Source of the DNA: a virus
Taxonomy: Duplodnaviria; Caudoviricetes
Virus record (IMG/VR): IMGVR_UViG_2654587505_000001
Location: 102,614-166,613 of that record
Length of the DNA stretch: 64,000 nt
Reading direction: 5' to 3' (one strand)
Notes under the pieces: generated by a model
Databases searched by the model: none
The model's input: only the letters and a program-made list of their open reading frames with translations
Told to the model about the DNA's origin: nothing
Translations under genes and position numbers: made by a program
Shown: one piece after another, positions 810-60,845 of the stretch
Layout: each line of letters begins with the position of its first letter
Position numbering within the stretch: the first letter of the stretch is position 1

Positions 810-911
810 GAAGAAATGTTCTTTGAAATAATTAGGATTTATAAGAGTTTTTAAAGAAGATAAACATAATAAAATTTCGGTTTTATTAGGTATTGTGAGA
901 GGAGAAATTAT

Positions 912-2015
912 TTGAACGGTAAGATTAATAAAGGCGACAATTTAAAGATTATGAAGAAAATTCAAGATAATTACGTTGACTCGTGCATCAGTGATTTTCC
1001 ATATTGGCTTGAGTTTATGGGAAAGTATTGGGACAAAGGAAGTCCTTATGAATGGACTTTACCAAGAGCAAAAGAGCTTTATAGAATTATTAAACCCGGG
1101 GGATATGTTCTAATTTTTGGTCATCCGAAAACAAATCATCGTATGAAATGTGCGTTTGAAGATGTAGGATTTCAGATTGTTGACGAGATTGATTGGTTAT
1201 ATATGACTGGATTTCCTAAGAATCAGGATATCGGAAAATTATTTGACAAACGAGCAGGAGTAGAAAGAGAAATAATTGGTTTTGTTCCAACTTCAAAAGG
1301 AATTCGTCCCGACAGTCATAATCTCATAGGTGATAAATGGGAACACAAAGGTCATCCAATAACAGTGCCAACAACCGAATTAGCAAAACAATGGGACGGT
1401 TGGAAGACAGCGGGATTAAAGCCAGCAAAAGAACCTATTACAATTTTCCAAAAACCGCTTGAAGGCACATATTGCGACAATATTGAGAAGTATGGGTGTG
1501 GTGGGATGAACATTGATGCTTGCCGAATTCCGACTGACGATAAATTGGTTAGGCCGAGCATTCAAAGATTTGACAATGAAGTTTATGGAAAAGGACTTGG
1601 TGCAGGAATACAAGTGGAACCAGAAGGTAGATTTCCGATGAATATCATTACTTTAGACGAATCTATTTGGTTTAGCAAATATGCAAATCCCTTTCCACAG
1701 TGGACGGATCAAGAGCTAAGTAAAAAGACGCAAACCAAAGAAAAGACACTAACAGACGGAACAAAAAACACTCATCCTACAGTTAAACCTGTAGAACTGA
1801 TTAAATGGTTGATTAAACTTGTTACACCTAAAGATGGGGTAACAATTGATATCGCGGCTGGAAGTTGTACTCATGGAGTAGCATGTGAAGAGTTAAACAA
1901 AGAAGGATATAGTCTGAAATGGTGCAATATCGAAATGGACGAAGATGAAAAAGGAAATAGTTTAGGATACATAGATATCGGTAAAAAGAGGTTAATGCAA
2001 TTATTTAATACATAA
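912..2015 (+). CDS. DNA N6-adenine/N4-cytosine methyltransferase (beta class)
   Basis: SDFPY motif IV variant, HPTVKP, DIAAGSCT motif I. Confidence 0.85.
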   Translation: MNGKINKGDNLKIMKKIQDNYVDSCISDFPYWLEFMGKYWDKGSPYEWTLPRAKELYRIIKPGGYVLIFGHPKTNHRMKCAFEDVGFQIVDEIDWLYMTGFPKNQDIGKLFDKRAGVEREIIGFVPTSKGIRPDSHNLIGDKWEHKGHPITVPTTELAKQWDGWKTAGLKPAKEPITIFQKPLEGTYCDNIEKYGCGGMNIDACRIPTDDKLVRPSIQRFDNEVYGKGLGAGIQVEPEGRFPMNIITLDESIWFSKYANPFPQWTDQELSKKTQTKEKTLTDGTKNTHPTVKPVELIKWLIKLVTPKDGVTIDIAAGSCTHGVACEELNKEGYSLKWCNIEMDEDEKGNSLGYIDIGKKRLMQLFNT

Positions 2016-2060
2016 AAAATGTTAATTAAAGTAGATATTTATTGGGTGAGGTGATAGGTA

Positions 2061-2612
2061 ATTGCTAAAACGGAATTAACAACAAAACTTGAAAAATCAA
2101 TTTACAGTACAACAAATAAACAAGGAACGTTCGGCTGCTTTGAAGTTACAATTGGTTGGTTTGGTAACGAAAGAGTTGACTACATTACATATGATACAAA
2201 GAGAATTTGGTGGTGCTATGAAATAAAAGTATCAAAAAGCGATTTCTATAGCAAATCAAAGAAAACCTTTGTTGGACATTTCAACTACTTCGTGATGCCG
2301 AAGGAACTGTACGAAGAAGTCAAGAGTGATATTTCAGAGCATGTAGGCGTTTATGCAGAAGGCAGTTATTCAATCAAAAAGGCTAAGAAGGTTGAATTGG
2401 GCGTTGATGAGCAGATATTAAAGGACTCGATGATTCGATCTTTAGCAAGGGATGTAGAAAAGCTTTTTAGGAGTGAAAATCAATCATATGTAGACAGAAT
2501 GAACCACAGGATTAGAGAATTAGAAAAGGATAGAGATAATTGGCGAGACAAGTATCAGAGATTGATGAATATTGGATATGAGAAATATGGAAGTGGATGG
2601 TATAGAGAGTAA
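2061..2612 (+). CDS. PD-(D/E)XK nuclease-like protein (MmcB-like), probable ATT start
   Basis: Frame open from ATT 2061 behind RBS GAGGTGA; RVDY...YEIKVSKSDF lies upstream of the ORF-track start. Confidence 0.7.
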   Translation: MAKTELTTKLEKSIYSTTNKQGTFGCFEVTIGWFGNERVDYITYDTKRIWWCYEIKVSKSDFYSKSKKTFVGHFNYFVMPKELYEEVKSDISEHVGVYAEGSYSIKKAKKVELGVDEQILKDSMIRSLARDVEKLFRSENQSYVDRMNHRIRELEKDRDNWRDKYQRLMNIGYEKYGSGWYRE

Positions 2613-2635
2613 AATTGATTTTTACGGGGTGAAAT

Positions 2636-2791
2636 ATGGACAATGAAAAGTTTGCAGAAAAGGTAAAATCACTGAGAAAAAATCCAGATGAATACATTAA
2701 ATTTATAGAGGAAAATTTTGGATTTAAGTTGTTATATTATCAAAAACTTTTCTTAAAGTTACTGATGAATAAAAAAATAAAATTCTTATGA
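2636..2791 (+). CDS. Hypothetical 51-aa protein
   Basis: RBS GGGGTGA, MDNEKF...KIKFL*, stop inside junction palindrome. Confidence 0.6.
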   Translation: MDNEKFAEKVKSLRKNPDEYIKFIEENFGFKLLYYQKLFLKLLMNKKIKFL

Positions 2792-2810
2792 AATAGAAGT
2801 TTTATTCATA

Positions 2811-2835
2811 AAAAAATAACCAGATAGAATCTGGT
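2811..2835 (-). terminator. Rho-independent terminator of the minus-strand moron
   Basis: ACCAGAT-AGA-ATCTGGT hairpin followed by a T run on the - strand. Confidence 0.6.
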
Positions 2836-2856
2836 CAGATCAGTAAATAAGTAATT

Positions 2857-3003
2857 CTATTTTTTCTTACCAGATCTAGATTGAGCAAGAGCTGATCCTG
2901 CCAACGATTTAGTTAACGCACTTGTTGACTTGCTACTAAGTGCTTTTGATGCCTTTGTAGAAATAGGATCAGAAGTTACTTTACGAGTACTGCTTTTAGC
3001 CAT
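2857..3003 (-). CDS. Small basic Ser/Lys/Ala-rich 48-aa protein (moron)
   Basis: MAKSSTRKVTSDPISTKASKALSSKSTSALTKSLAGSALAQSRSGKKK; RBS GAGGTGA, own promoter and terminator. Confidence 0.75.
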   Translation of the reverse strand: MAKSSTRKVTSDPISTKASKALSSKSTSALTKSLAGSALAQSRSGKKK

Positions 3004-3042
3004 TTATCATCACCTCAATTCATTCATGACGTTTATAGAAAT

Positions 3043-3109
3043 ATTTTACAACACAATATATAGTGTGTCAACCACTTTTGTTCTTATTTGTTCCTACTAT
3101 ATGTGGTGA
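3043..3109 (-). promoter_or_regulatory. SigA promoter overlapped by tandem NrdR-like boxes
   Basis: TTGACA-17-TAAAAT on - strand; ACACAATATATAGTGT 3051-3066 and CTACTATATGTGGTGA 3094-3109. Confidence 0.7.
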
Positions 3110-3145
3110 TAAAATTACACTTTCATTAGGATCGGAGGTAATCTT

Positions 3146-3352
3146 TTGATTGATTCACTACCTTCAGTATATGCAAAAGATGTACTATTTGATGGGGAAG
3201 TAGATGAATATACTCAAATACTAAATGCTTATCCAATCAGTCATCAAGATTCTATTGAGATTCTTAGATGGGTTGCCAGATTAAAAGGAAATGGATTATC
3301 AAATGATATGATTATTAACCGATTGATGAGAAGGGGGAAGTTTTTGATTTGA
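3146..3352 (+). CDS. Hypothetical phage protein
   Basis: ORF with RBS GGAGGT after junction palindrome. Confidence 0.6.
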   Translation: MIDSLPSVYAKDVLFDGEVDEYTQILNAYPISHQDSIEILRWVARLKGNGLSNDMIINRLMRRGKFLI

Positions 3353-3543
3353 AAATTATCGCAGTAGACAATTTTGGTCGTGAAAGTGTTGCAGATAAAT
3401 TGATTGCCGAAAATGTAAGTGAATATTGGGGTAAATATATTGTTGAGTTAATGAATGATAAACAGCATGACGATAGCTTACATTATTTTAAGCTAGTCAG
3501 TGATGATTATAGACTGTGGAGAGGTATGGAGGAGTTGGTTTGA
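3349..3543 (+). CDS. Hypothetical phage protein
   Basis: Coupled ORF with RBS. Confidence 0.65.
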   Translation: MKIIAVDNFGRESVADKLIAENVSEYWGKYIVELMNDKQHDDSLHYFKLVSDDYRLWRGMEELV

Positions 3544-3545
3544 GT

Positions 3546-3737
3546 ATGTATCTATATGTTAAATTCACAGATACATTTGAAAGATATATAAACATGGTAA
3601 ATGGAATTGATGGAGTTCCTGTTCATGAGCGTGTTGTAAGAGTTAAATTTACAGACGAACAAATTGAATTGTTGCATCCTAGAAAAGTTGGTGTTGATTG
3701 CGGCAAAGATGTCCTTGAATACAGGACATCGATTTAA
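3546..3737 (+). CDS. Hypothetical phage protein
   Basis: RBS GGAG, ATG 3546. Confidence 0.55.
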   Translation: MYLYVKFTDTFERYINMVNGIDGVPVHERVVRVKFTDEQIELLHPRKVGVDCGKDVLEYRTSI

Positions 3738-3793
3738 ACTCAAGAAGAATAGATTACTTTAAAATCGGATTTTTATTGGGAAGTGGATGTAAC

Positions 3794-4021
3794 ATGAAGA
3801 AAGATAAAATTAAAGTTCATTTTTATTGTGGGATGTATCGCGGTGAACCAAAGTGGAGATATGGTTATGATTGGTATAAAGAACCTGAAGAATGTTATAA
3901 CGAAGGTATCATTGAAGTAGATAAAATTGATTGGGAAGAAGAATCTGTTAGTTATATTTGCCCTGAGTGTAAAAATGAATTATATCAATCTGATGGTCAC
4001 TTTGAATTAGTAAGTGAGTAA
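3794..4021 (+). CDS. Hypothetical Zn-ribbon protein
   Basis: CPEC motif; follows palindrome. Confidence 0.6.
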   Translation: MKKDKIKVHFYCGMYRGEPKWRYGYDWYKEPEECYNEGIIEVDKIDWEEESVSYICPECKNELYQSDGHFELVSE

Positions 4022-4081
4022 GATTGAGAATTCTGATTGAGAGGATAACTTTGAAAAAAATGGATGGAGGATGATGTAAAA

Positions 4082-4273
4082 ATGTTGCCTGAACACGAGA
4101 TCAAATATCGAGTTTATTACAAAGACAAAACTAATAATGTTGCATGGTATTCAGACGATTCCGACTATGAATTAGCAGAAAAGAGATATGAATACAAAAT
4201 AAATAATGATGAATATTATGATGTGAAACTTGTTAAAGAAACTATTAATAGAACTGTGTTGAGAGAACAATAA
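4082..4273 (+). CDS. Hypothetical phage protein
   Basis: RBS GGAGGA, stop in palindrome. Confidence 0.6.
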   Translation: MLPEHEIKYRVYYKDKTNNVAWYSDDSDYELAEKRYEYKINNDEYYDVKLVKETINRTVLREQ

Positions 4274-4309
4274 AATGGAAAATTTATAGGAATTGAGGAG
4301 GATTTAAAA

Positions 4310-4558
4310 ATGAGAGATATAATCATTGAGACTGCCAAGAAAAATACTGAAATAAATTCTGCTAATGCTGCTGACCTACACTTACTAAAATTGAAATCTA
4401 TCAAGGATTTAGATTGTGTGAAAGATTTGATGTGTGAATGGGCAGCGGAGTCTTTAGATGATAAAGAAAATAGAAAATGGATTAGACAAGATATTAAAGA
4501 TGGTATCACATTTATCTTTTGGTACGATCAAGAAGGGAAATTGGAATATAGCCGTTGA
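4310..4558 (+). CDS. Hypothetical phage protein
   Basis: RBS GAGGAGG. Confidence 0.65.
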   Translation: MRDIIIETAKKNTEINSANAADLHLLKLKSIKDLDCVKDLMCEWAAESLDDKENRKWIRQDIKDGITFIFWYDQEGKLEYSR

Positions 4559-4568
4559 GGTGGGATTA

Positions 4569-4841
4569 ATGATGAATCCTGAAAATGATAAATTTACTTT
4601 GGATGAGTTAATCGAATTGAAAATCCATATTGAAAATCGAATTCAGCAAATAAAGGACAATATTGCCACGAGTGTACTAAACGATGCTGAAGATCGAATT
4701 ATTCAATATCATAGGAAAAGACTGTCCGAAGCAATGACCAATTTAAGAAGGTTAAAAAAGTTAGGATTTAGTGTAAATTCAGAATTCGACCAAGAAACAA
4801 TTAATATGAGCCAATTAATTATAAATGAAAAATTTGTATAA
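4569..4841 (+). CDS. Hypothetical coiled-coil protein
   Basis: RBS GAGGTG, ATG 4569. Confidence 0.6.
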   Translation: MMNPENDKFTLDELIELKIHIENRIQQIKDNIATSVLNDAEDRIIQYHRKRLSEAMTNLRRLKKLGFSVNSEFDQETINMSQLIINEKFV

Positions 4842-4878
4842 TTTATAAATGGTCTCATTCTCATAGGGAGTTGATGTT

Positions 4879-5073
4879 TTGTTTATTAGAAAGCGCAAAG
4901 TGTTAGATGAAATTGAGGCAATGCGGAACGAGTTATTGCAGCATATTGATACTTGGAGTAAATCAAATAGCGAAGATAAGTGGGAGAGGTTAGATAAGTT
5001 TAGGTTTGCTAGTGATGAACTAGCAGAGTTAGCATACTGGCTTAAACACAATGAACGATATAGACCACGATAA
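4879..5073 (+). CDS. Hypothetical phage protein
   Basis: RBS GGGAG, stop in palindrome. Confidence 0.6.
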   Translation: MFIRKRKVLDEIEAMRNELLQHIDTWSKSNSEDKWERLDKFRFASDELAELAYWLKHNERYRPR

Positions 5074-5108
5074 AAGGCTGATTTTATTGGGAAAGGATAA
5101 ATAAAAAA

Positions 5109-5396
5109 ATGCCAATTGTAACAAAAGACAATACTAAGTATTTACAGTTTGGTTACGGAGACATTTTTGTGGGCGAAGCAAAAGATAGTGAAACAGGCAT
5201 GACTTATGGAGTGGCATTTGTTCTGAGCGAACCAAGAGATATTGGTGCGGAATGGAATGAGGTTAAAGGGTTGACATTAGACCAATTAGATACTCATGTC
5301 ATTATGCAGTTTGATAAAATAGAATCTCTTGATGTGGTAATTGAAACATTGCAGAATATTCGTAAGACAATGCAGATGCAAGATAACGCATACTAA
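5109..5396 (+). CDS. Hypothetical phage protein, paralogue of 6164-6421
   Basis: Shared QxGxGD, GxAF and S(L/I)DxVIxxL patterns. Confidence 0.7.
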   Translation: MPIVTKDNTKYLQFGYGDIFVGEAKDSETGMTYGVAFVLSEPRDIGAEWNEVKGLTLDQLDTHVIMQFDKIESLDVVIETLQNIRKTMQMQDNAY

Positions 5397-5434
5397 TCAA
5401 ATAAATGATGGATTTCATTGGGAAAGGAGATAAT

Positions 5435-5611
5435 ATGAAAAATCGGGAAACTGTAAAGATAGGTTCGTTTCGAGATTTTGATATTTACAAACGAGACGAT
5501 TTGAATATGTATATTAAGTTTCATGAAACAGGCGATGTATACACAATGGGATTTGAAGAAGGCACTTTGATCAAAATTTCCAATTTGCTTAAAGAAAAAA
5601 TCGGTCTATAA
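5435..5611 (+). CDS. Hypothetical phage protein
   Basis: RBS AAGGAG, bracketed by palindromes. Confidence 0.6.
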   Translation: MKNRETVKIGSFRDFDIYKRDDLNMYIKFHETGDVYTMGFEEGTLIKISNLLKEKIGL

Positions 5612-5641
5612 AAGGTAGATTTTATATGGTTGGAGGAAAGT

Positions 5642-5893
5642 ATGATTCATGAATTAAAAACTTGGTCTGAATATTTTCATAAACTTAAAACTGAAGAAAA
5701 AACCTTTGAGGTCAGAAAAAACGATAGAAACTTTAAAGTTGGAGACTTGTTGTTACTTAGAGAGTACAATCCAAATACCGGATATACTAATGAAGTTTGT
5801 TGGCGAAAGATTACATATATTCTCGATGATCCTAATTTCGTCAAAGATGGTTTTGTAATACTTGGGATAAAGAATGCAGAAGTTTTCTTTTAG
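5642..5893 (+). CDS. ASCH/PUA-like (DUF3850) protein
   Basis: HELK...KTFEVRKNDRNFKVGDLLLLREY. Confidence 0.85.
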   Translation: MIHELKTWSEYFHKLKTEEKTFEVRKNDRNFKVGDLLLLREYNPNTGYTNEVCWRKITYILDDPNFVKDGFVILGIKNAEVFF

Positions 5894-5923
5894 TAAATGA
5901 AATTCATTTTCATGGGGTGGGAA

Positions 5924-6130
5924 GTGGTTTATATTAAAACTATTTATATTAAAGCAACGTATAAATCTGGAAGAGTACATTATTTTACAATTAATAATTT
6001 TGATAATTTTCGTTCAGCAATGAATCATATGCTTAAATGCAAATGGAATATATTCGATCATTTTGTAATTAATATTGATGAAGTTGAAACATTTGAAGAA
6101 ACAACAGCCGATAAGCAAATCATTAGTTGA
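5924..6130 (+). CDS. Hypothetical phage protein
   Basis: ORF between palindromes; start GTG 5924 or ATT 5933. Confidence 0.55.
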   Translation: MVYIKTIYIKATYKSGRVHYFTINNFDNFRSAMNHMLKCKWNIFDHFVINIDEVETFEETTADKQIIS

Positions 6131-6163
6131 GCAAATCAAATTTCATATTTATAGGGAGGAAGT

Positions 6164-6421
6164 ATGCAAATTCAATTAGGCAAAGGTGATGTAGCAATTA
6201 TGCTTGCTACAAATGATGAAAATCGGAGTGCTAACGGAATTGCATTTGTTAGAAGAAATGCTGAATATCTGATTGCGGTTGATGTTGACTGCGATGTGAC
6301 GAATGAAGAAATCGAGAATGGAACTTTGGGGTATATATTCTTTAGTAATCCCAAATCGATTGATGCTGTAATTAATCAATTAAACAAACTAAAAGAAAAA
6401 TATGGACAATATATAAAATAA
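6164..6421 (+). CDS. Hypothetical phage protein, paralogue of 5109-5396
   Basis: RBS GGGAGG; shared motifs. Confidence 0.7.
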   Translation: MQIQLGKGDVAIMLATNDENRSANGIAFVRRNAEYLIAVDVDCDVTNEEIENGTLGYIFFSNPKSIDAVINQLNKLKEKYGQYIK

Positions 6422-6479
6422 TAGTTGGTAAATGAAATAGTGTTTTATCTGGATTCATAAGCAGATATGGGAAAGCAGA

Positions 6480-7232
6480 TTAAAAAAGCAAGCGACTTAC
6501 TTCTTTATTTTTGTAATGAAGATAAGATTTTTCTAACATTTCATAATCCCAAAACTGCACGCGGTTTTTTAAATTTCTATATACATTCCATTTAAGTGTT
6601 TCATAAAATAACTTCTCCTTCTTGCGAGGGGCGACAACTACCATCTCAACAGCAAAATTTCTAAGTTCGTTGAATTTATTTAAGGATTTTGAGAAATCGG
6701 TGGTATTCTCAACTTCAAAAATCTTTCTAGGAAAGAGGGTGTCTGTATTTCCATTAAGCCATATTACATCAATGGTTTTAATTCTATTTATAACTTCTTT
6801 GTAAGTAAATTCAGGCAATTTTGTAAAACTTGCCAAATTTTTTAACGGTATATCAATGTATTTTCGGTTTTGATCTTGAGCAGGAACATAGGTTTTATAA
6901 CCTAACATATTCCCTGAAGTGATTAACATTCCTTGATTGTAAGAGTGTAAATTTAACTTAAAATCTTCATTTTGTTTATCATGTTCCATAAGGTTAATTA
7001 CATTATCTGGTAATTTATCTTTAAACTCATTTAAAGCCCAAAGTCCCGGCCTGATCTTAAAAAAATACCTTTGATCTTGAACTATTCTTCTAATGGTCGC
7101 ATCAGGCGTTTTAGTTTTCCAGTTAACATGCTTTACCTGTAAAACTTCTCTGTATAAATCTAATAAAGTGGTATAACCACCTTTTTGTTTCATAACATCA
7201 ATAACTACTTGAGTCTGAGTAATTTTCTTCAT
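6480..7232 (-). CDS. Winged-helix (HARE-HTH-like) plus PD-(D/E)XK restriction-endonuclease-like protein
   Basis: KTPDATIR...FFKIRPGLWAL N-domain; IDVIW...FEVE catalytic pattern. Confidence 0.65.
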   Translation of the reverse strand: MKKITQTQVVIDVMKQKGGYTTLLDLYREVLQVKHVNWKTKTPDATIRRIVQDQRYFFKIRPGLWALNEFKDKLPDNVINLMEHDKQNEDFKLNLHSYNQGMLITSGNMLGYKTYVPAQDQNRKYIDIPLKNLASFTKLPEFTYKEVINRIKTIDVIWLNGNTDTLFPRKIFEVENTTDFSKSLNKFNELRNFAVEMVVVAPRKKEKLFYETLKWNVYRNLKNRVQFWDYEMLEKSYLHYKNKEVSRLLF

Positions 7233-7321
7233 TGTTTTTGCTCCTACAGGAAGAATATGTATATGTAAAACAATATCAAAAAATTAATAAAAATACTAGT
7301 CTATCAATGGAGAGTGTCTAT

Positions 7322-8173
7322 TTGAATAAAAAATATATAAAATCGCCTATGAATTATATTGGGGGAAAATATAAATTACTCCCACAATTACTGCCGCTTT
7401 TTCCTGAAAATATTGGCACATTTGTTGATTTGTTTGCTGGTGGTTGTAATGTAGGAATTAACATTGAAGCCAAAAAAGTGATTTGTAACGATAAGGAACA
7501 AGCTATTATAAATTTATACAATGAGTGCAAGAAACATTCAAGCGAAGTAATGCTAGAAATTTTAGATAAAACAATTAAAAAATATGAACTTTCTAAAACA
7601 AATCAAGAAGGATATTTAAAATTAAGAAACGATTATAATAGTGGGAATAGATCGTGGTATATGTTTTACGCATTACTAACTCATTCCTTCAATAATCAAT
7701 TTCGATTTAATTCTAAAGGCGAATTTAATATGTCTTTTGGGAAAAATAGAAGTAGTTTTAATCCTACTTTAAGACGACATTTTATAGCTTTTGTGAATAT
7801 CTTAAAACAGAAAAATATTGTGTTTACAAATAAAGATTACAAGAAGTTAACTATTGGAAAACTAAAAGAAGGAGACTTTGTATATTGTGATCCGCCATAT
7901 TTAATCACTACAGCAACATATAATGAACAAGGTGGATGGACAGAAAAAGATGAAAAAGAACTATTGTATATGCTTGATTATTTAGATATACATAAAGTTA
8001 AATTTGCTCTATCTAATGTTTTAATACATAAAGGAAAAGAAAATAAAATTTTACAGGAATGGTCAAATAAATATAAAGTGCATAAAATGGATTATAATTA
8101 TGCAAATTGTAATTATCAGTCAAAAATAAAAAATAAAGACAGTACAATTGAAGTTCTTATTACAAATTATTAA
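7322..8173 (+). CDS. Dam/D12-class DNA adenine methyltransferase
   Basis: NYIGGK, DLFAGG, FNxKGEFN, YCDPPY; TTG start behind GGAG. Confidence 0.9.
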   Translation: MNKKYIKSPMNYIGGKYKLLPQLLPLFPENIGTFVDLFAGGCNVGINIEAKKVICNDKEQAIINLYNECKKHSSEVMLEILDKTIKKYELSKTNQEGYLKLRNDYNSGNRSWYMFYALLTHSFNNQFRFNSKGEFNMSFGKNRSSFNPTLRRHFIAFVNILKQKNIVFTNKDYKKLTIGKLKEGDFVYCDPPYLITTATYNEQGGWTEKDEKELLYMLDYLDIHKVKFALSNVLIHKGKENKILQEWSNKYKVHKMDYNYANCNYQSKIKNKDSTIEVLITNY

Positions 8174-8231
8174 AGATAATAAAAATCTGATTTTTATCTG
8201 TTAAAAATAAAATAATTAAGGATGGTGTATT

Positions 8232-8954
8232 TTGAGTAAAAAATTATTGGGAAGCTTAGAGTTAAATAGAGTTTATCAACGAGACACGCTTGAAGGTATG
8301 AAATTGATTCCAGATGAAAGTATTGATTTGACCGTCACCGATCCTCCTTATCTTATGAACTACCGAAGTAATCGGCGGGTTAAGCAAGAAAAATTCGACT
8401 ATATCAAAAACGACAAAGATTCACATGAATTAATTTCTGAATACATAAAAGAATTATACAGAATACATAAAAATGATACGGCTGTTTATATGTTTTGTTC
8501 TTGGCATCATATCGATTTTTTTAAACAAGAATTTGAAAAATATTTTACCTTAAAGAATTTAATTGTATGGAATAAGAACAATCACGGTTCAGGAGATTTA
8601 AAAGGATCATATGCTCCAAAACATGAATTGATTTTGTATGGTCATAAAGGAAGAAGTTTATTCCGTGATAAACGTATTCCCGATGTTATTGATTTTGCAA
8701 AGATTCCAAGTGTCAAATTAACACATCCCACAGAAAAGCCAGTTGGACTTTTAGAAATTTTTATTAAAAATAATAGTGATGAAGGAAATATTGTTTTTGA
8801 TGGTTTTGGGGGAAGTGGTTCGACGTTCGTAGCAGCAAAGAATTTAAAACGAAATTATATTGGATTTGAAATTGAAAAACAGTACATTGAAATGACAAAT
8901 TTGCGTCTTGAATCAGAATATGATGAAGACACTGATTTTAAATTACTAAGCTAA
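8232..8954 (+). CDS. DNA N6A/N4C methyltransferase (beta class)
   Basis: TDPPY, HPTEKP, DGFGGSG. Confidence 0.9.
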   Translation: MSKKLLGSLELNRVYQRDTLEGMKLIPDESIDLTVTDPPYLMNYRSNRRVKQEKFDYIKNDKDSHELISEYIKELYRIHKNDTAVYMFCSWHHIDFFKQEFEKYFTLKNLIVWNKNNHGSGDLKGSYAPKHELILYGHKGRSLFRDKRIPDVIDFAKIPSVKLTHPTEKPVGLLEIFIKNNSDEGNIVFDGFGGSGSTFVAAKNLKRNYIGFEIEKQYIEMTNLRLESEYDEDTDFKLLS

Positions 8955-8992
8955 TAAAGGCAAATTTCATTGGGAGACTTTAGAGAGGGTGA

Positions 8993-9079
8993 TTACAGCA
9001 GCCCCATAAACAGTTTCCAACTAAACCTAAGCTTAAACCTTACAGTCCCAGATTTTGTTTTTTCATATACTATTTCCAT
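8993..9079 (-). CDS. 28-aa peptide on the minus strand
   Basis: RBS AGGAGG, MEIVYEKTKSGTVRFKLRFSWKLFMGLL*, between palindromes 8954 and 9190. Confidence 0.45.
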   Translation of the reverse strand: MEIVYEKTKSGTVRFKLRFSWKLFMGLL

Positions 9080-9220
9080 ATACTCATCATCCTCCTACTA
9101 TAAGAATCGTTTCTTCATTCTATATAGTTGCGAGAGAAGATAATATTACTCGATTTTGGTGTACTGTACTGTTTGTTAATAGAAACTTAATAAAAGAGCG
9201 ATTTTAAGGGGGGTGAAAAT

Positions 9221-9457
9221 TTGAATGAAGATCAAAAGTATAACTATTTCCGAGACAGTTATATTGATTTTATTACCGCTATGTTTAACTGTGAAATTTC
9301 TGCAATGAACGCAGAAAACAAACAACGTGAAGTTCAAGGTGATAGCATGGCTTACATTGAAGAAGATTATTACAAAGTTTCTCGAAGATATAAGATGATT
9401 GTTGATAAATATATTGAGAAAATGAATAAAGATATGAGAAAAATGAAAAGTCTATAA
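9221..9457 (+). CDS. Hypothetical phage protein
   Basis: RBS GGGGGTG; bracketed by palindromes. Confidence 0.65.
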   Translation: MNEDQKYNYFRDSYIDFITAMFNCEISAMNAENKQREVQGDSMAYIEEDYYKVSRRYKMIVDKYIEKMNKDMRKMKSL

Positions 9458-9487
9458 AACAATGCTTTCATGAGGAAGTGAGTTAAA

Positions 9488-9649
9488 ATTCTGAAATATC
9501 AAGAGATGTACGAAAGAGCATGTAACTACCGTAAAGCCGCTGGAATGAGAGAGTTAACATATACTGAACGGATGGAAGAAAAACTATATTTTCTTATTGA
9601 TCTGAACAATCAATTGCTTGAACGACTTCAAGGAAAGACAAATGAATAA
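9488..9649 (+). CDS. Hypothetical ~53-aa protein, ATT/CTG start
   Basis: Open frame LKYQEMYER...KTNE* behind GAGGAAGTGA. Confidence 0.45.
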   Translation: MLKYQEMYERACNYRKAAGMRELTYTERMEEKLYFLIDLNNQLLERLQGKTNE

Positions 9650-9830
9650 AATAATAAGATACATAAATGAGAATGAGATTGACGATATGGTCACTGCAAT
9701 TGTAAAGAGTGGTAAGGATTTAAAAAAGGTACTCTATGACATTCGTATGGCACGAGTTAAATTTCAAACAAAGTCACAACACTTACAATGGGCATTGGAA
9801 AAATATTTACCTAAAGATGAGGAAGAATAG
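9642..9830 (+). CDS. Hypothetical phage protein
   Basis: Coupled ORF, ATG 9642. Confidence 0.6.
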   Translation: MNKIIRYINENEIDDMVTAIVKSGKDLKKVLYDIRMARVKFQTKSQHLQWALEKYLPKDEEE

Positions 9831-9831
9831 A

Positions 9832-10008
9832 ATGTCAAAATCAATTGGATTATTTACAAAGGAAATGTTAGATAAAGCTAAGTTTGATTGGTGTAACTTA
9901 AATGGAAAGTCGCTGCTAATCAGGGTTATAGAACAAGATGGTTGGAGATTCGTTTATGGTATGGAATCAAATAAGTTGTATCTTTTGGATCATAAGCTAT
10001 TAAAATAG
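9832..10008 (+). CDS. Hypothetical phage protein
   Basis: RBS GAGGA, ATG 9832. Confidence 0.55.
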   Translation: MSKSIGLFTKEMLDKAKFDWCNLNGKSLLIRVIEQDGWRFVYGMESNKLYLLDHKLLK

Positions 10009-10065
10009 GGTATTCGGATTTTGTGGTGGAACAACTGGAAATAAAACGTCAATTGAGGTGATAAA

Positions 10066-10326
10066 ATGAATCCAAAGTTTCAGACTATAGTAGATGAATT
10101 TAAGAAGCATAACGTTATATTCGGTGACGATGAATTGATACATGATATTCTCGAAAAAAGTGATATTTCAATTGATGAGTTACCCGAATTTGCTACGTTC
10201 TTAGCGGAGGAGTACGAAAGAACAAAAGACGACAAGGTAGAACAATTGCAATACGGAATTAATTTTATTTTTGAGACGAGAAGAGAAGGTTATAAAGTAA
10301 ACTACAGATCTAAGTATATCAATTAA
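10066..10326 (+). CDS. Hypothetical phage protein
   Basis: RBS GAGGTGA. Confidence 0.65.
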   Translation: MNPKFQTIVDEFKKHNVIFGDDELIHDILEKSDISIDELPEFATFLAEEYERTKDDKVEQLQYGINFIFETRREGYKVNYRSKYIN

Positions 10327-10407
10327 TTGGAAACCATTAAGATTCATTCCACCACACAATCCGAAAAGCCTTAAAATAGTGTTTTTATTGGAAAGGAGCA
10401 AGGAACA

Positions 10408-10638
10408 ATGTTTTGGATATTATTCTACTTAGTCACTGGAATCACAATATTGCTATTATTGAGGGGATATCAATATTTTTCACCACCTTCAAGACTGGTG
10501 CAGATTAATAAGGGTACATATCAATTCAAAGATTATATCGAGATGCCTGAATGGTTGTGGCGAATTATATTAACGATTTTTTGGCTACCCTACATAATTG
10601 CACTATTTATAACAATTAGAAAACATCCACCATTTTAA
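10408..10638 (+). CDS. Small membrane protein
   Basis: Two hydrophobic segments; bracketed by palindromes. Confidence 0.6.
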   Translation: MFWILFYLVTGITILLLLRGYQYFSPPSRLVQINKGTYQFKDYIEMPEWLWRIILTIFWLPYIIALFITIRKHPPF

Positions 10639-10677
10639 ATCCTACGAAATGGTGGTTTTATTGGAGGAAAATAAAAA

Positions 10678-10806
10678 ATGAAAAGAGTAAGTAGAATGAC
10701 ACCAGAAGAATTTAGTGACAGAGCAGATTTATTTTTAAGAGGAGTTATTGTGGGTGCAATAATTGCGGGTTCTGTTTGGTTAATTGCATCACATTATAAT
10801 ACATAA
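10678..10806 (+). CDS. 42-aa membrane peptide
   Basis: RBS GGAGG; GVIVGAIIAGSVWLIA; stop in palindrome. Confidence 0.55.
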   Translation: MKRVSRMTPEEFSDRADLFLRGVIVGAIIAGSVWLIASHYNT

Positions 10807-10821
10807 AATTATTCTTTCATA

Positions 10822-11016
10822 GAGAGTGAATGTGGGCTTGAGGAAATAGGTACTCACACATTGCGAAAGACATTCGGCTATCACTTTTACCAGAAGACGA
10901 AGGATGTGGCGATGCTGCAGAACATATTCAACCATGCGTACCCGTCGCTCACGATGAGATATATTGGTATCAATCAAGACATGATTGATAATGCAGTAAG
11001 CAAATTCACTCTTTAG
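10822..11016 (+). pseudogene. C-terminal fragment of a tyrosine recombinase (phage integrase family)
   Basis: GTHTLRKTFGYHFY...LQNIFNH...TMRYIG (HxxR, H, Y residues); no start, cut at palindrome 10803-10820. Confidence 0.85.
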
Positions 11017-11026
11017 GAGGGTATAC

Positions 11027-11281
11027 ATGAAAACGGTCATTAAACTCCCAAAGGATTGTACGTGCGGCGGCACTATATTTACAGATTCCATGTGCATGCC
11101 TTGTTTAAAACAAGCAGAGGAAAAGCTGCTTAATAAAATCGATGAACTTCAAGAACAGTTAGATGAGTACGAGTCTAGCTTGGACATAATCCAATGGCAT
11201 ATCCGGAATCCAATCTGCCCCGGCGGGTGCGGTGAAAACACTGCACATTGCCAGTGTTGTGAAGAGGAAGACGAAGAGTAA
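11027..11281 (+). CDS. Cys-rich hypothetical protein
   Basis: RBS AGGAGG; Cys clusters. Confidence 0.6.
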   Translation: MKTVIKLPKDCTCGGTIFTDSMCMPCLKQAEEKLLNKIDELQEQLDEYESSLDIIQWHIRNPICPGGCGENTAHCQCCEEEDEE

Positions 11282-11900: not shown

Positions 11901-11947
11901 GGTCAAATAAAGGCGGCAAGCCGCAAAATAGAAGGAGGGATAGATAC

Positions 11948-12136: not shown

Positions 12137-12140
12137 ATAC

Positions 12141-50580: not shown

Positions 50581-50625
50581 AACACTATAAAAAGATACTT
50601 TTATCAGGAAAGGAGGAGAACAGTT

Positions 50626-50811
50626 TTGACATATGAATACATTAGACCATATAAAGAAGATAAGCCTAAGAGATGCCCTCGATGTGGATGTGAAATCAAT
50701 CCTTTTGGTATTATTTTAGAAGAAAACTGTGGTTTTCTTGGATTGGGAATAAAAAGAACTTCGATTAAGTCTTGCATGAAGTGTGACTATAAGATTAAAA
50801 AAAGAATATGA
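50626..50811 (+). CDS. Zn-ribbon protein
   Basis: CPRC...CMKC; between palindromes. Confidence 0.6.
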   Translation: MTYEYIRPYKEDKPKRCPRCGCEINPFGIILEENCGFLGLGIKRTSIKSCMKCDYKIKKRI

Positions 50812-50840
50812 AAATACTCCATTTTATAAGGTGATTATTA

Positions 50841-51712: not shown

Positions 51713-51871
51713 AGATTCACCTCTTTGCATATTAATATCTATTTTAAGTTAAAGAAGGGGAAATGTAAAATAAAAAAATTAACAAGTTTTCATTGGAAAA
51801 CATTATTTAATTTAACGAATGACCAAGGTTCTTTGGTAAAGAAGATGAAATTTGAATTTTATGGGGGAAAC

Positions 51872-52186
51872 ATGAAAGCAAAAGAACGAGCAAGAGCAAT
51901 TGGAGAAGCATTATTGGCAGTTGCAAGTGATACTGTAGTTTCACGAGATGACGAGAAATTATTCGGCATCCTCTTTGCAAACCATCTTCAAATGAATGGG
52001 TATAAAAAAGATATTGATCCAGACTTGCTAATCCTCTCGATGAGAGACGCATATCATGAGTTGCAGCATCACAAAAAACATAATCCAGAGGCAACAATTG
52101 AAACTGTATTTACAAAGCAATACATAGATAAACTGATTGAAAAAGGTTGGTATACAAGACCAGAGGATAAGGTTTTAGAATGGTAA
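51872..52186 (+). CDS. Hypothetical phage protein
   Basis: Between palindromes 51845 and 52186. Confidence 0.65.
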   Translation: MKAKERARAIGEALLAVASDTVVSRDDEKLFGILFANHLQMNGYKKDIDPDLLILSMRDAYHELQHHKKHNPEATIETVFTKQYIDKLIEKGWYTRPEDKVLEW

Positions 52187-52219
52187 TAAAACAAGAAATT
52201 TATGAAGAAAAGGAGAGAA

Positions 52220-52957
52220 ATGACAAAAATGAGAACTGAAACCGTAAAGGTTAATTTACAGTTTAATGTTACTAGAGAACTTGAAGATAATGAGGTCTTA
52301 TGTCCTGTATGTAGCGGCACATCATTGCATATTCAAGGAATCCCATTGGCGCAAGTGACGAACGGAATTTATGAGATTAAAAAATTTGGCAGGTACGACA
52401 CAATTGTTGGATGTGGCTCATGTTATTATGGGGTACAAAAGAAATGTGAACATTGCGATAACCTACTTGGGCGCAGTAATCTTTGTACGTGCGATAAATC
52501 TAGATGGGAACAAAGAAACAAAGAGGAGCAAAAAGAAAGGGAAAAATGGGGGAAAATTAATAAAATTACATACAAAGAAGCGCTAGATAAATATGAAATG
52601 ATTTACATTGATGGTTTTGAAAAATATTGTGCTCCTGATGAGCTTTCAGAATATCTTCAATGGTATCTTGATGATAACAGAGAAGTTACAGTTGAAGATA
52701 TACTTAGCCTGAGAATTTATGGGACGTATATTACAAATGCAATGTTTGATGCAACAAGCATTTTAGAAAATGCTACAGAGGAACTTCATGAAGAAGCATA
52801 CGATCGTTCAAAACACATCTTAAATAAATTACAGAGCTACTTAGACGAAATAGCTAAGGAAATTCAGCGGGATACACTAACCTACTTTCCAGATGAAAAA
52901 GTAGGTATTCAATTGACCAGCAAAGATATTGAAAAGTTTGAACTACAGTTCAAATAA
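52220..52957 (+). CDS. Cys-rich (DnaJ-like Zn finger) phage protein
   Basis: CPVCSG, CGSCYYG, CEHC. Confidence 0.7.
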   Translation: MTKMRTETVKVNLQFNVTRELEDNEVLCPVCSGTSLHIQGIPLAQVTNGIYEIKKFGRYDTIVGCGSCYYGVQKKCEHCDNLLGRSNLCTCDKSRWEQRNKEEQKEREKWGKINKITYKEALDKYEMIYIDGFEKYCAPDELSEYLQWYLDDNREVTVEDILSLRIYGTYITNAMFDATSILENATEELHEEAYDRSKHILNKLQSYLDEIAKEIQRDTLTYFPDEKVGIQLTSKDIEKFELQFK

Positions 52958-52991
52958 AAACTAGATTTTATAGGGAAAAGAATATGTGGAT

Positions 52992-56526: not shown

Positions 56527-56566
56527 ACCAAATAAAAGAACAATTTCATGGGGAGATGAGTTGAAA

Positions 56567-56734
56567 ATGGATATGTACAAGCAGATGTGTGTTCAGCAAG
56601 GATATATTCCGCTTACGTGTACATTGGATGGTCAGTTGGTCTGGTTGTTGGTAAATAAAGAGGGCAACCCATGCAAGGGATGTAACGAAGATAGAGATAT
56701 ATGCAAAGGGCGACCTAAAACTGAAACACGATGA
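56567..56734 (+). CDS. Small Cys-rich protein
   Basis: PCKGCNEDRDIC; between palindromes. Confidence 0.6.
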   Translation: MDMYKQMCVQQGYIPLTCTLDGQLVWLLVNKEGNPCKGCNEDRDICKGRPKTETR

Positions 56735-56766
56735 AAGGAAATATTTTATAGAGGGGAGGCTTCCAA

Positions 56767-59700: not shown

Positions 59701-60711
59701 GATGACTTCCTTGAGAGAATGCATGACACAGGATTAGTTAAAAAAGGACAAGTGCTTCAATTAATTAAAGCAGGATGTTTCGATTCTTTTGGTGACAGAA
59801 TTGAAATTATGAAACACTTTATAACAACTAGAGTTTACTCACCAAAAGATAAATTGACTATGCAAAACTTTAATATATTAATTGAAAATAATTTAATTCC
59901 TGAAGAATATTCTTTGTACAAGAGGTTGTTTAAATTTAGAAAATACGTCACGAAAAAAGTCTACAGAACGGAAGGTAAAGATAAACTATACTTACTGGAC
60001 GATATTTCAACTGAATTTTATTATGAACATTTTACAACTAACGGAATTGTTGAGTATAAGGACAATCTTCCTGTTATTTCTGAAAAAATCTTTAAAAAAG
60101 AATATGATAAAAAAATGGACGGTATTAAAGAATGGCTTCAAAGTGTAGATACATTAAATATGGTTAACAACCATTTATATGAAATTGAGTGGGAAAGTAA
60201 TGCTTCAGGAACAATCAGTAAATGGGAAATGGATTCGCTATCGTTCTACTATACTGAACACGAATTAAAACACATCAATAAAGAAATATATGGAATTGAA
60301 GATTTTAATTCTCTTCCTGAAGAACCTGTTGTAGTCAGTCATTACGAATCTAGAGGACAACAAAAACCAAGGTTTAAATTATGTTGTATTGCTGGAACAG
60401 TACTTGACAGAGATAAAAATAAACACACTATTGCTTTGCTTACAACTGATGGAGTAGTTACTGTTAAGTATTATGATGGTGCTTTTGCTCACTATAATAA
60501 GCAAGTCTCCAGACTAAATGGAGATAAAAAGGAAATATTAGAGAAAAGTTGGTTTACTCGTGGAAATAAATTGGTGGTATATGGATATCGTCGCGGTTCA
60601 CAATTTAAGCCATACAAGTATTTTGATTCACCTGTTAAGCACACAACTATGTTAATAACCCAAGTCAATGATGACGGAACAATTATCGTCAAAACCGAAC
60701 GTGAGATATGA
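56767..60711 (+). CDS. dnaE: DNA polymerase III alpha subunit (YorL-like)
   Basis: PHP HCHT/TDHE, GRGSA, PDIDLD, SIHSGG, KYDLL. Confidence 0.95.
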   Translation: MIGCHCHTAKGSNLRLIDSTNKTKDLIKTAAKMGYSGIAITDHESLSAHVEAIKIVKELKKPDKNGNTVIPKDFKLLLGNEIYLLMEPLEEVKNNYKSGKTKFPHFILIAKDAIGHRQLRILTSKAWEQSFKTGIMERTPTEKEFLEQVVSENRGHLIASTACLGSEINIYLLEMKVAEENNDLETVKELKKKIHNFINWCINTFGKENFFIEIQPAWSEEQIYCNKKLIPIAKHYGLQWIVTTDAHFLRPEDREIHRAFLNSKDGEREVDDFYEACFLQNLEEIKERLNYLDSSDVQIAIENTLKIGDMVEEYDLFKPVSIPRIELPEFEVRHIFKPAYDKYEYIAKMAYSDEPQDRYLIKLIEDGFDAKVPRNTLTRESFHQKLARINIELEELWHISLSLKEAMSAYYITIREIVLIMWDDCGGNSLVGPGRGSAAGFYINYLLDITQVDPLQYNLPHWRHLHKSRPDYPDIDLDSEAAKRKQIINALKRKFGERKVINIATFGTEKSKSAVLTACRGLGYDNDIAMHIASLIPFERGSNWTISDCLYGNEEEEREPVKEFINEIEKYPKLKETVLKIEGLENKRSIHSGGVFIYNEDLIERNALMKAPNGQWITQFSMSDSEYMGGIKYDLLTVENEDKLRVSLNLLLENNMIEWQDSLKKTYEKYLHPDVLEYDNPEIWNKMGNGEVIDLFQFNTQIGVETAKKVKPQNVLEASIANSLMRLMPDEGSTQPVDLYVKYKNNISLWYKEMRDHHLTDDEISIMEKHLKHKYGIADSQESVMIMVMDEKISGFDIVEANLLRKGIVKKNKDKIEETRQLFYKKGRERGTSKHLLNYVWEVQIKRQIGYSFSDLHTTVYTIVGLQDLNLYHRYDPLIWNTACLTVNSASSEDENNDESDEGEEKKNKSTNYGKVASAIGMMQSHGVKIGLPDINKASFGFKPDFEVRQITYGLKGLVGVGDELASILVEHRPYKSFDDFLERMHDTGLVKKGQVLQLIKAGCFDSFGDRIEIMKHFITTRVYSPKDKLTMQNFNILIENNLIPEEYSLYKRLFKFRKYVTKKVYRTEGKDKLYLLDDISTEFYYEHFTTNGIVEYKDNLPVISEKIFKKEYDKKMDGIKEWLQSVDTLNMVNNHLYEIEWESNASGTISKWEMDSLSFYYTEHELKHINKEIYGIEDFNSLPEEPVVVSHYESRGQQKPRFKLCCIAGTVLDRDKNKHTIALLTTDGVVTVKYYDGAFAHYNKQVSRLNGDKKEILEKSWFTRGNKLVVYGYRRGSQFKPYKYFDSPVKHTTMLITQVNDDGTIIVKTEREI

Positions 60712-60845
60712 ATTTTCTAAAATAACGTAATTTTATCTCTGTATATCTCACTAATACTCACTCATTCTCTTGTTTTTATCATCACAATACCCAATAAAAT
60801 CACTCTTTTATTACCTATAAATTTACATAAGGGGAATGACACAAC

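Follow-up and report, generated by a model that had tools for sequence, protein, structure and literature searches.

How tailed-phage genomes keep their order despite gene swapping has been debated since modular theory proposed linkers between modules. The question is raised in concrete form by the terminal 64 kb (positions 102614-166613; hereafter the window) of a single 166,613-bp virus record, IMG/VR IMGVR_UViG_2654587505_000001, in which an inverted repeat of about 18 bp, ATRAAA-N6-TTTYAT, recurs at gene junctions. Two conserved 6-bp arms enclose a spacer of variable sequence, mostly 6 bp long (N6). A first-pass annotation had counted about 55 copies, a fair figure in view of the 52 in our inventory, and had taken them for the sites of a system that captures, shuffles and deletes single-gene cassettes. 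Our best reading, to which we give an even chance of being right, is that the copies are individually addressed joints between modules, read by a phage protein, and that modules are swapped at copies which two phages share.

An inverted repeat at the gene junctions of SPbeta-like phages

Exact matches to ATRAAA-N6-TTTYAT number 21 in the window, where dinucleotide shuffles lead us to expect 0.38 (maximum 2) and 0 of 100 shuffles reached the observed count. Allowing one mismatch at most raises the number to 40, where 9.5 are expected and the shuffle maximum is 17. The inverted repeat that the first-pass annotation described is thus real, and the examples it quoted (at 5070, 9454, 35268 and 56532) are all present as written. 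Scanning the spacer length with exact arms gave 4 copies at N5, 21 at N6, 6 at N7, 3 at N8 and none at N2-4 or N9-10 in the window, and 8, 39, 12 and 4 copies at N5 to N8 in the whole record, with one or two each at N3, N4 and N9. At N6 the whole record holds 39 inverted copies but only 3 with everted arms and 2 and 3 with the arms as direct repeats. Base composition therefore does not explain the count. The scan and the arm-arrangement control confirm the proposed arm-6 bp-arm geometry, and two inverted arms around a spacer of 6-8 bp are the geometry of a tyrosine-recombinase core site. Information is restricted to six bases per arm, and outside them it is close to background except for a GG at +21/+22 that is part of the following ribosome-binding site. 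Of the 39 genome copies, 35 lie beyond 60 kb, in the early arm, and 35 are intergenic although the coding fraction is 0.86. That such a motif could be a chance product of AT-rich intergenic DNA is suggested by its AT-rich arms and by a genome of 31.6% G+C, but this explanation is refuted by the shuffles, by the other arrangements and spacers (0-12 copies against 39) and by the proviruses described below (0-2 reversed matches against 13-23).

The phage was placed by its polymerase (1314 aa), which is 58% identical to YorL of Bacillus phage SPbeta, and by blastp (E 1e-5), which found SPbeta counterparts for 27 of 272 called open reading frames (ORFs), among them YonN (HU), YonO, YopP, YopQ, YopR and the large serine recombinase. 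Megablast of 12 kb of the window against a phage collection found nothing, and the best relatives in polymerase-guided scans of IMG/VR viral contigs and genome contigs reached at most 66% amino-acid identity. SPbeta carries 7, 2 and 5 exact copies in the three thirds of its genome (14 in total, against 0.12, 0.25 and 0.20 expected), all intergenic or at gene ends, and some of them in regions transcribed from the opposite strand or between convergent genes. In 27 polymerase-bearing IMG/VR loci we counted 74 N6 copies against 3 everted ones, with two or more copies in 21 loci and none in 6. Eight prophage loci on genome contigs (four from Paenibacillus, two from Bacillus and two from metagenome-assembled genomes, MAGs) held 22 copies against 1 control match, and five whole proviruses held 23, 14, 13, 15 and 17 copies against 1, 1, 2, 0 and 2 matches to the reversed pattern. 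The lone 154-kb prophage contig of a 5.1-Mb Bacillus genome holds 19 of its 37 copies, and the remainder of that genome is at control level (37 against 35 control matches overall), while two Paenibacillus genomes gave 47 against 6 and 72 against 6. A site for a host factor was rejected on these counts: host DNA carries the motif at control density, so that a host factor is unlikely and a phage protein or a phage-specific process is to be expected. Supported by SPbeta, the IMG/VR loci and the prophages alike, the motif is a specific, family-wide and phage-specific site at the gene junctions of SPbeta-like phages.

Another way to view the motif is as an RNA element, a small AU hairpin just 5' of the ribosome-binding site that acts in translation, processing or stability. 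It does adjoin ribosome-binding sites: in the window, GG follows the right arm within 8 nt at 33 of 49 intergenic sites, as the earlier description of a purine-rich ribosome-binding site after that arm had it, and 31 of the 49 end 10-35 nt before a called start. Spacers of 5-8 nt are tolerated, and perfect copies fold weakly, at -2.3 to -5.2 kcal/mol (z -2.3 to -4.6). The arms, however, do not covary. Among 136 distinct 18-mers pooled from all sequences, positions 3 and 16 formed 164 Watson-Crick combinations where independence predicts 162.5 (p 0.94), and positions 7 and 12 paired less often than expected (72 against 93). The A-C mismatch variant, with C at position 16, is as common among the genome copies (14 of 39) as the G-U variant, with G at position 3 (13 of 39), and two folded copies of the TTTCAT type showed no fold (-0.1 kcal/mol, z +0.8 and +1.3). 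The SPbeta copies in opposite-strand regions and between convergent genes also speak against a role in RNA, which we consider very improbable. Arms that do not covary suggest a double-stranded protein site rather than a hairpin, and a protein of two-fold symmetry bound to duplex DNA would be expected to give half-sites whose degeneracy is symmetric but independent. From this pattern of variation we take the motif to be a two-fold symmetric duplex DNA site for a protein, and not a hairpin.

The family is already known to carry one repeated protein site. The SPbeta repeated element (SPBRE) is bound by the integrase-fold repressor MrpR/YopR/SroF, as reported from chromatin affinity precipitation sequencing (ChAP-seq) and gel shifts, with ten ChAP-seq peaks described for MrpR, each at an SPBRE promoter (PMC10516654). 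MrpR is further described as binding a box of about 24 bp as a monomer (bioRxiv 10.1101/2025.11.27.690993). Within 300 bp upstream of the ten ChAP-seq genes of SPbeta, nine of ten share a box ending AATATGTATA, which sits between -35-like and -10-like boxes. Identity of the motif with this MrpR operator was rejected on sequence, the box being unlike ATRAAA-N6-TTTYAT and SPbeta carrying both elements, and on position, the motif lying at stop codons and ribosome-binding sites in 39 exact copies against about ten promoter peaks. SPBRE thus resembles the motif as a repeated intergenic element of the same phage family that is bound by a phage protein, and differs from it as a promoter-internal monomer box with about ten peaks, where the motif has 6-N6-6 symmetry and 14-39 exact copies in a genome. 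Two other candidates were also rejected: a promoter of the YonO RNA polymerase, since YonO reportedly initiates late-gene transcription at a single site 5' of yonK (PMC5467207), and a PamR site, since the PamR inverted repeat differs (PMC5730154). In the window phage a CAAATACATATA box is repeated at genome positions 51429, 51457, 61478, 87536 and 101824 (the last being 789 bp upstream of the window start), beside TTGACA-like and TATAAT-like boxes, and is probably this phage's counterpart of SPBRE, an MrpR operator. The available portions of the literature on SPbeta, SPBRE and the arbitrium repressors (including PMC10516654, PMC8270828, 10.1101/2021.11.22.469490 and 10.1101/2025.11.27.690993) contain no description of the motif that we could find, and older literature on the family and the ChAP-seq supplements may bear on it.

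Homology breaks, module swaps and candidate readers

The first-pass annotation had suggested asking whether gene gain and loss among SPbeta-like genomes break within the spacer. This comparison was run on SPbeta and five whole proviruses (G001-G005) that are 80-93% identical to it, that is, on Bacillus relatives and not on the window phage, in genome pairs that share history and are not independent. Homology blocks were taken from blastn (at least 80% identity over at least 300 bp), and block ends within 60 nt of a site were counted. Starts of blocks gather at one edge, with 47 of 84 at -6 to +5 relative to the first base of the site, and ends of blocks at the other, with 46 of 92 at +12 to +29, so that the two outer edges together hold 93 of the 176. 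The proposed location fared badly: spacer positions 6-11 hold 2 of the 92 ends and 0 of the 84 starts, with one further end in the left arm (0-5). An exchange between copies with identical spacers would, though, leave no mark visible inside the site. At 49 of 51 edge block ends the partner genome also carries the site, 45 of these 49 with a spacer identical at six of six positions, and no hybrid spacers were seen. As to which neighbour the site accompanied, it was the upstream gene in 41 cases and the downstream gene in 47.

More telling is how the spacer behaves when only one flank is conserved. When pairs are counted whether or not the partner has a site, every spacer position agrees in 28 of the 47 whose flanks are homologous on both sides, in 20 of 33 with homology on the left only and in 19 of 31 with homology on the right only. 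Identity in the left-flank pairs drops from 70% to 27% directly after position 18, and in the right-flank pairs it climbs from 39% to 58-84% at positions 1-3. The alignments indicate that the site is shared by descent whichever side was replaced, and the sharing of whole sites at the vertical rate in left-only and right-only pairs implies that past exchange partners carried the same copy. Between genomes, 271 copies have the same spacer against 4 in which it is flipped, the flipped class serving as the chance null; by gapped alignment of 120-bp flanks, 109 of the 271 have homology on neither side, 54 on the left alone, 53 on the right alone and 55 on both. By tblastx with 500-bp flanks, 89 copies are islands without flank homology, a figure from + frames only, so that late-region pairs are misjudged in it. 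Immediately beyond the 18 bp of an island copy, identity is at background. As a control we collected unique exact words, 18 bp or longer, whose flanks are unrelated; motif sites account for 64 of the 201, and the restriction to unique words was needed because a second AT-rich repeat otherwise swamps the count. On these comparisons the 18 bp are often the sole shared sequence at past exchanges. We note separately that the SPbeta group has a second junction element, of the form TTAGARTAAAAATAAAAT, between the motif and the ribosome-binding site (SPbeta 113681-113698 and 132764-132781), with many copies in G001-G005, which dominated the short exact-word control.

In five events a block of 0.3-5 kb has been exchanged for another while the two conserved copies around it are the same, and in four of these the blocks share no tblastx similarity, so that this part of the recombination-site interpretation, together with the junction position and the enrichment at boundaries, stands, while spacer breakpoints and shuffling within a genome do not. 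At same-strand junctions of 10-200 bp, mosaic boundaries make up 71 of 125 with a site and 150 of 487 without one (odds ratio 2.95). On the early strand of the six SPbeta-group genomes the counts were 62 of 101 against 112 of 321, and each of the six showed the excess; on the late strand, with 9 of 24 against 38 of 166, the difference is not significant. The link between motif and mosaic boundary that these counts suggest is moderate. Closer to the window itself, a 44-kb metagenome contig shares rearranged pieces with positions 1-20000, and 7 of the 19 listed piece ends fall in or within 6 nt of a site: pieces begin at 3760, 5070, 6442 and 15530 and end at 4276, 10817 and 19092. Among the listed ends, 3760 and 5070 were judged exact, at the first base of a site; a further 17 pieces lie outside the 19. 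Sites with a 6-nt margin cover about 3.5% of the 20 kb, but about half of the junctions in this region carry a site, so that 7 of 19 is not an excess over a junction-only null.

An integron- or pdif-like explanation has to be weighed at this point, in which a tyrosine recombinase crosses over inside the spacer and would capture single-gene cassettes, shuffle them or delete them, inside one genome or between genomes. The arm-6 bp-arm geometry suits it, as does the presence of an apparently intact YopP-like tyrosine recombinase as a core gene of the family. Sites 47676-47694 and 48064-48082 of the window (both N7 exact) suit it as well: they share the 7-bp spacer TACACTG, enclose a 369-bp unit (47695-48063, + strand) and have their arm variants swapped (ATAAAA..TTTCAT on the left, ATGAAA..TTTTAT on the right), a pattern to be expected had a circle integrated at a matching site, though this is one case. 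So does a variable stretch of 4.5-6 kb in G003 (sites at 53147 and 59224) and G004 (47893 and 52384), flanked in both by the same 18-mer with one base changed in the second copy; its content differs between the two genomes, and the outer sequences are mutually unrelated. Canonical tyrosine recombinases, however, need matching spacers, and the 90 sites of the window phage (N6, up to one mismatch) carry 89 different ones. The sites would thus be mutually incompatible for such enzymes, and capture, shuffling or deletion within the genome, as first proposed, is not indicated. Nor did we find any cassette that lies between one pair of sites in one genome and another pair in a second: cases in which both flanking spacers differed numbered 0. 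Same-spacer neighbours are rare: the sequences scanned contain 12 pairs altogether, and several of these are tandem duplications or probably due to chance. Together with the near-empty spacer positions, the lack of hybrid spacers and the lack of covariation or of an attC-type folded-strand signature, these counts make the explanation improbable.

Two observations on these spacers stand on their own. In one copy the spacer is reverse-complemented between SPbeta (99497) and G001 (99440, SPbeta orientation), with the left flank homologous and the right flank different, a single case in the 127 flank-defined pairs examined; and spacers common to the window phage and the SPbeta group number 7 in the same and 4 in the flipped orientation, which is chance level. 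Within the 369-bp unit, a 115-codon frame on the + strand (47714-48058) has an in-frame TGA at 47882-47884; neither half matched a Pfam family, and the label "YopX-like", given on inspection, was dropped since Pfam did not support it.

What we propose is that a phage-encoded protein reads the two-fold symmetric duplex site, whose copies in the early arm mark where accessory genes and modules begin or end. They stand after a stop codon, before a ribosome-binding site or at both, each with its own 6-bp spacer as the address of the junction, and among related phages a copy with its spacer stays put while the left neighbour, the right or both are replaced by unrelated genes. Crossing-over at the site between two phages that carry the same copy would be the simplest route to this outcome, and DNA between two shared copies would be exchanged in register with gene order kept. 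The exchange might be site-specific and require spacer identity, the spacer then being the address; alternatively, another phage protein might bind the site for regulation while the 18 identical bases serve general recombination as a linker, much as has been proposed for the PeSLs of T4-type phages (PMC2839356). We infer both that recombination occurs at the site and that a YopP-like tyrosine recombinase is its reader, a candidate chosen because the arm-spacer-arm geometry and the requirement for spacer identity fit a tyrosine recombinase. The most specific form of the proposal is natural recombinase-mediated cassette exchange, in which the YopP-like enzyme would read the arms, the spacer would address the same junction in a co-infecting relative, swaps would be in register, and dozens of mutually incompatible sites would guard the genome against self-deletion; in this full form we regard it as rather unlikely.

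The candidate lies outside the window. As the first-pass annotation had anticipated, integrase-fold genes are found elsewhere in the genome: a YopP-like ORF with an apparently intact catalytic set (genome 44652-45701; PF00589, 42.5 bits against a cut-off of 27.1) and a homologue of MrpR (genome 92541-93521; PF22822, PF22823). The YopP-like protein has R169, K197, H257, R260, H283 and Y293, and in an alignment of ten sequences (the window phage protein, eight database relatives and SPbeta YopP) R169, K197, H257 and Y293 are invariant, with H283 present in nine and R260 in eight. A search of 22 records found the gene in 18, and among SPbeta-like virus records with a completeness of 90% or more it is present in 14 of 14; its co-occurrence with the motif is uninformative, since every complete family member has both. 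Two MAGs without a YopP-like hit, both incomplete, had 1 and 2 motif copies in 20-24 kb loci, no enrichment. We know of no substrate assigned to the YopP-like recombinase. MrpR, by contrast, is described as having lost its catalytic residues (PMC10516654), and phage integration as the role of the serine recombinase (PMC10516654, PMC8270828). Other candidate binders conserved with SPbeta are a YopQ-like protein, an HU-like protein and a small helix-turn-helix protein. The YopQ/SroE-like protein (genome 91135-92520) scores 25.4 bits against the DndB family PF14072, below the cut-off of 29.1, which hints at a DndB-like DNA-binding fold for the second SPbeta repressor.

Several observations weigh against reading the sites as swap joints served by this enzyme. 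The best-known recombinases have arms of about 11-13 bp, and the motif has six informative bases per arm. SPbeta YopP, like one other sequence in the alignment, has Lys at the second catalytic Arg (R260), and SroD, the phi3T/SPbeta counterpart of the YopP-like protein, has been reported to be an auxiliary repressor. A boundary site was present in 36 of 255 pairwise replacement events, leaving 219 without the motif, and a site lay within 30 nt of 16.3% of 575 boundaries as against 10.7% of 488 non-boundary junctions and 2.4% of random positions, so that mosaic joints can form without the motif and are not strongly predicted by it. In pairs with homology on both sides, spacer identity (0.91) equals that of the flanks (0.90-0.92), and no selection on the addresses is seen. 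Compact junctions have dispensable bases only at the edges of the site, and selection alone could sharpen the boundaries. Moreover, the breakpoint statistics rest on non-independent pairs, a crude gene caller and the Bacillus relatives. Laboratory hybrids point the same way. We painted four phi3T(s) x SPbeta hybrids with parent-specific 21-mers (for the hybrid PP526179, phi3Ts stood in for the phi3T parent), and of 15 parental switches, 7 could be localised to 31-89 bp, none of them at a site (0 of 7; the nearest 894-7404 bp away) and two of them representing one patch in two records; the other 8 fall in parent-identical tracts of 1.4-18 kb and are not placeable. Localised crossovers away from the sites imply that ordinary homologous recombination does the observed mixing between close relatives. 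The sites would then be relevant where flanks are unrelated. Several edges of the identical tracts do coincide with sites (for example 104630/104631, 106028/106035 and 119061/119066), which mirrors the natural pattern but is silent on the laboratory event.

A purely regulatory role would account for some of this. The motif might be an operator for the SroD/YopP-like protein, the DndB-like SroE/YopQ-like protein or the HU-like YonN protein, silencing or punctuating transcription in the manner of mycobacteriophage stoperators, and boundaries might coincide with it merely because it fills short intergenic gaps and must persist. Dimer operators classically have this geometry, two symmetric arms and a spacer fixed in length but free in sequence. 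The motif is phage-specific, and 35 of its 39 copies lie beyond 60 kb, a concentration in the early arm; all three candidate binders are conserved between the window phage and SPbeta, most boundaries lack the motif, and the localisable hybrid crossovers avoid it. That a repressor can act at numerous sites of a genome is illustrated by the stoperators (PMC9283540). An operator does not, however, explain why a neutral spacer is shared independently of the flanks (20/33 and 19/31 against 28/47), nor why 109 of 271 same-spacer copies have both flanks unrelated. Sites follow stops as well as precede starts, with two-site examples at 9190/9454 and 56532/56731, and the known master repressor is not the binder, the MrpR ChAP-seq peaks described being all at SPBRE (PMC10516654). 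An operator and nothing else is possible if selection in very compact junctions sharpens boundaries, but this leaves the islands unexplained, and we think it unlikely, if to be taken seriously. Even then the motif would be a second, undescribed regulon-wide site of the SPbeta-like family.

If, on the other hand, the copies are module joints, their interest goes beyond this phage. The whole family, including the Bacillus subtilis phages SPbeta and phi3T, carries a linker resembling a protein site at module borders, and individually addressed copies persist between unrelated genes, which makes the question testable in a tractable system.

Sites and genes of the window

The inventory of 52 sites admits N6 with at most one mismatch and exact arms at N5, N7 and N8; 49 lie between + strand genes and 3 inside genes. 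Gene calls are those of our own simple ORF and Shine-Dalgarno caller, and for this reason distances to starts are approximate. The upstream stop codon lies in the left arm at 14 of the 49 intergenic sites, as had been described, and 31 of the 49 begin within 12 nt of a stop; 20 are both near a stop and 10-35 nt before a start. Long junctions often have a pair, the first site following the stop and the second preceding the next start. That the sites lie at accessory-gene junctions holds good, but "nearly every" junction was an overstatement, 43 of 110 consecutive + strand gene pairs carrying one. The claimed absence of sites from other modules stood for N6, with none inside nrdI-nrdE-nrdF-thyA-dfr (38687-44114), none between the 494-aa gene and the primase-like gene (22848-22870) and none inside the three TnpB units of the window; the sole exception is a doubtful N5 match (42266-42282), between nrdF and the next gene, which overlaps a GGAG ribosome-binding site.

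All sites are listed without strand. Exact N6 copies begin with 869-886 (25 nt upstream of a gene start), 2788-2805 (upstream stop inside the left arm), 3109-3126 (start 19 nt downstream), 5070-5087 and 5608-5625 (each containing a stop), 9454-9471, 10803-10820, 15098-15115 and 20702-20719. They continue with 24003-24020, directly 3' of a terminator-like hairpin, 25488-25505, 25681-25698, which is 5' of the TnpB gene 25858-27111, 30791-30808 (containing a stop), 32828-32845, followed by a TTGACT promoter-like box, 35268-35285, 49172-49189, 50587-50604, 51845-51862, 52954-52971 (containing a stop), 56532-56549 (stop 5 nt upstream) and 60794-60811, 3' of the polymerase gene. N6 copies with one mismatch are found at 3759-3776, 4270-4287 (containing a stop), 5401-5418, 9190-9207, 10371-10388, 10644-10661, 14088-14105 (containing a stop), 14398-14415, 15317-15334, which lies like 15098 in a long stretch without a + strand gene call, 19070-19087 (containing a stop), 34944-34961, 35693-35710 (containing a stop), 38320-38337, 47391-47408, 52186-52203 and 62380-62397, 16 nt 5' of the large serine recombinase gene. 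Gene 9221-9457 has sites at both ends, 9190-9207 ending 13 nt upstream of it and 9454-9471 containing its stop.

Other spacer lengths with exact arms are represented by N5 at 5897-5913, 6432-6448 and 29167-29183 (containing a stop), by N7 at 8179-8197, 15520-15538, 48634-48652 (stop 18 nt upstream) and 56731-56749, the last being the second site in the junction of 56532 and 17 nt 5' of the polymerase start, and by N8 at 34046-34065 and 50808-50827 (containing a stop). Of the three matches inside genes, those with one mismatch at 3809-3826 and, in the primase-like gene, 23307-23324 are probably chance, and an N8 match in the 3' end of the primase-like gene (23925-23944) is uncertain. Seven of the sites named here are those at which pieces of the metagenome contig begin (3759, 5070, 6432 and 15520) or end (4270, 10803 and 19070).

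Genes of the window are almost all on the + strand. Pfam identified five DNA methylases, a RuvC gene, nrdI-nrdE-nrdF with a MazG-like gene, thyA and dfr (38687-44114), a sigma-70-like gene (44890-45513), an IS607-type unit (16765-18526), two further TnpB genes and the start of the large serine recombinase (62414 to the window end). The sigma-70 family gene, with regions 2 and 4, lies directly 3' of thyA-dfr and has no SPbeta homologue by blastp (E 1e-5); the window phage may have its own promoter class. The IS607-type unit (MerR/resolvase TnpA and TnpB) is, with its surroundings (16679-18679), precisely missing from the related metagenome contig, whose joint runs from 16678 to 18680, skipping 2001 bp with 11 bases that fit both sides: a clean insertion polymorphism, away from any motif site. 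A G+C-rich palindromic repeat with ACTAAAGTCGCGGG occurs in three copies, at window 781-808 and at genome 75401 and 89133; assembly contigs of the run that is probably the source break at this repeat, and a 143-bp contig there has higher depth.

Comparison with known systems

Stoperators of Cluster A mycobacteriophages depend on orientation, and we know of no link between them and mosaic joints. They resemble the motif as dozens of copies of one protein site across a phage genome, and differ from it in being, as described, asymmetric and read by a monomeric repressor (PMC9283540). Integron attC sites share other features with it, standing at the ends of promoterless genes in one orientation and overlapping stop codons. 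attC sites are longer, however, and are recognised as a folded single strand, with structure rather than sequence conserved, whereas the motif is conserved in sequence, pairs without covariation and lacks a folded structure of that kind. No IntI-type array or attI was seen, the YopP-like and MrpR-like genes being the only ones of tyrosine-recombinase fold found, in analyses that included no dedicated IntI search. The integron-like version, with crossover in the spacer and shuffling within the genome, is not what the data show.

A closer parallel in phage is provided by the PeSLs of T4-type phages, described as cassettes of promoter and stem-loop that mediate modular shuffling (PMC2839356). Like the motif, these are short conserved intergenic motifs in accessory or hyperplastic regions, at the borders of insertions, deletions and replacements, and are proposed places of recombination; unlike it, they are composite promoters with terminators whose copies are alike enough to recombine, giving mini-circles (PMC2839356). 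The motif is an 18-bp dyad whose copies within a genome share only the 6-bp arms, so that exchange would be limited to the same copy elsewhere. With PeSLs it has in common the position at borders (62 of 101 against 112 of 321 boundaries, and five swaps bounded by a copy on both sides). A promoter with a terminator stem-loop was not found, the 18-bp unit folding weakly or not at all and the promoter half being judged from the 18-mer alone, without a promoter scan.

The core sites of tyrosine recombinases, as used in lox/FRT cassette exchange, at XerCD dif and in pdif modules, where they work in pairs with different spacers, offer the last comparison. The motif differs from them in having only six conserved bases per arm, arms without a likeness to dif as far as they were compared, and no crossover visible inside the spacer, where an exchange between identical spacers would leave none to see. 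It resembles them in its inverted arms, its spacer of about 6 bp, a logic in which only copies with the same spacer would combine, and a recombinase in every complete member tested; in the window phage the YopP-like ORF of the same genome has the catalytic residues of an enzyme that is, as predicted from its sequence, intact. Recombination between same-spacer copies only would explain why copies are kept whole and why exchange is in register.

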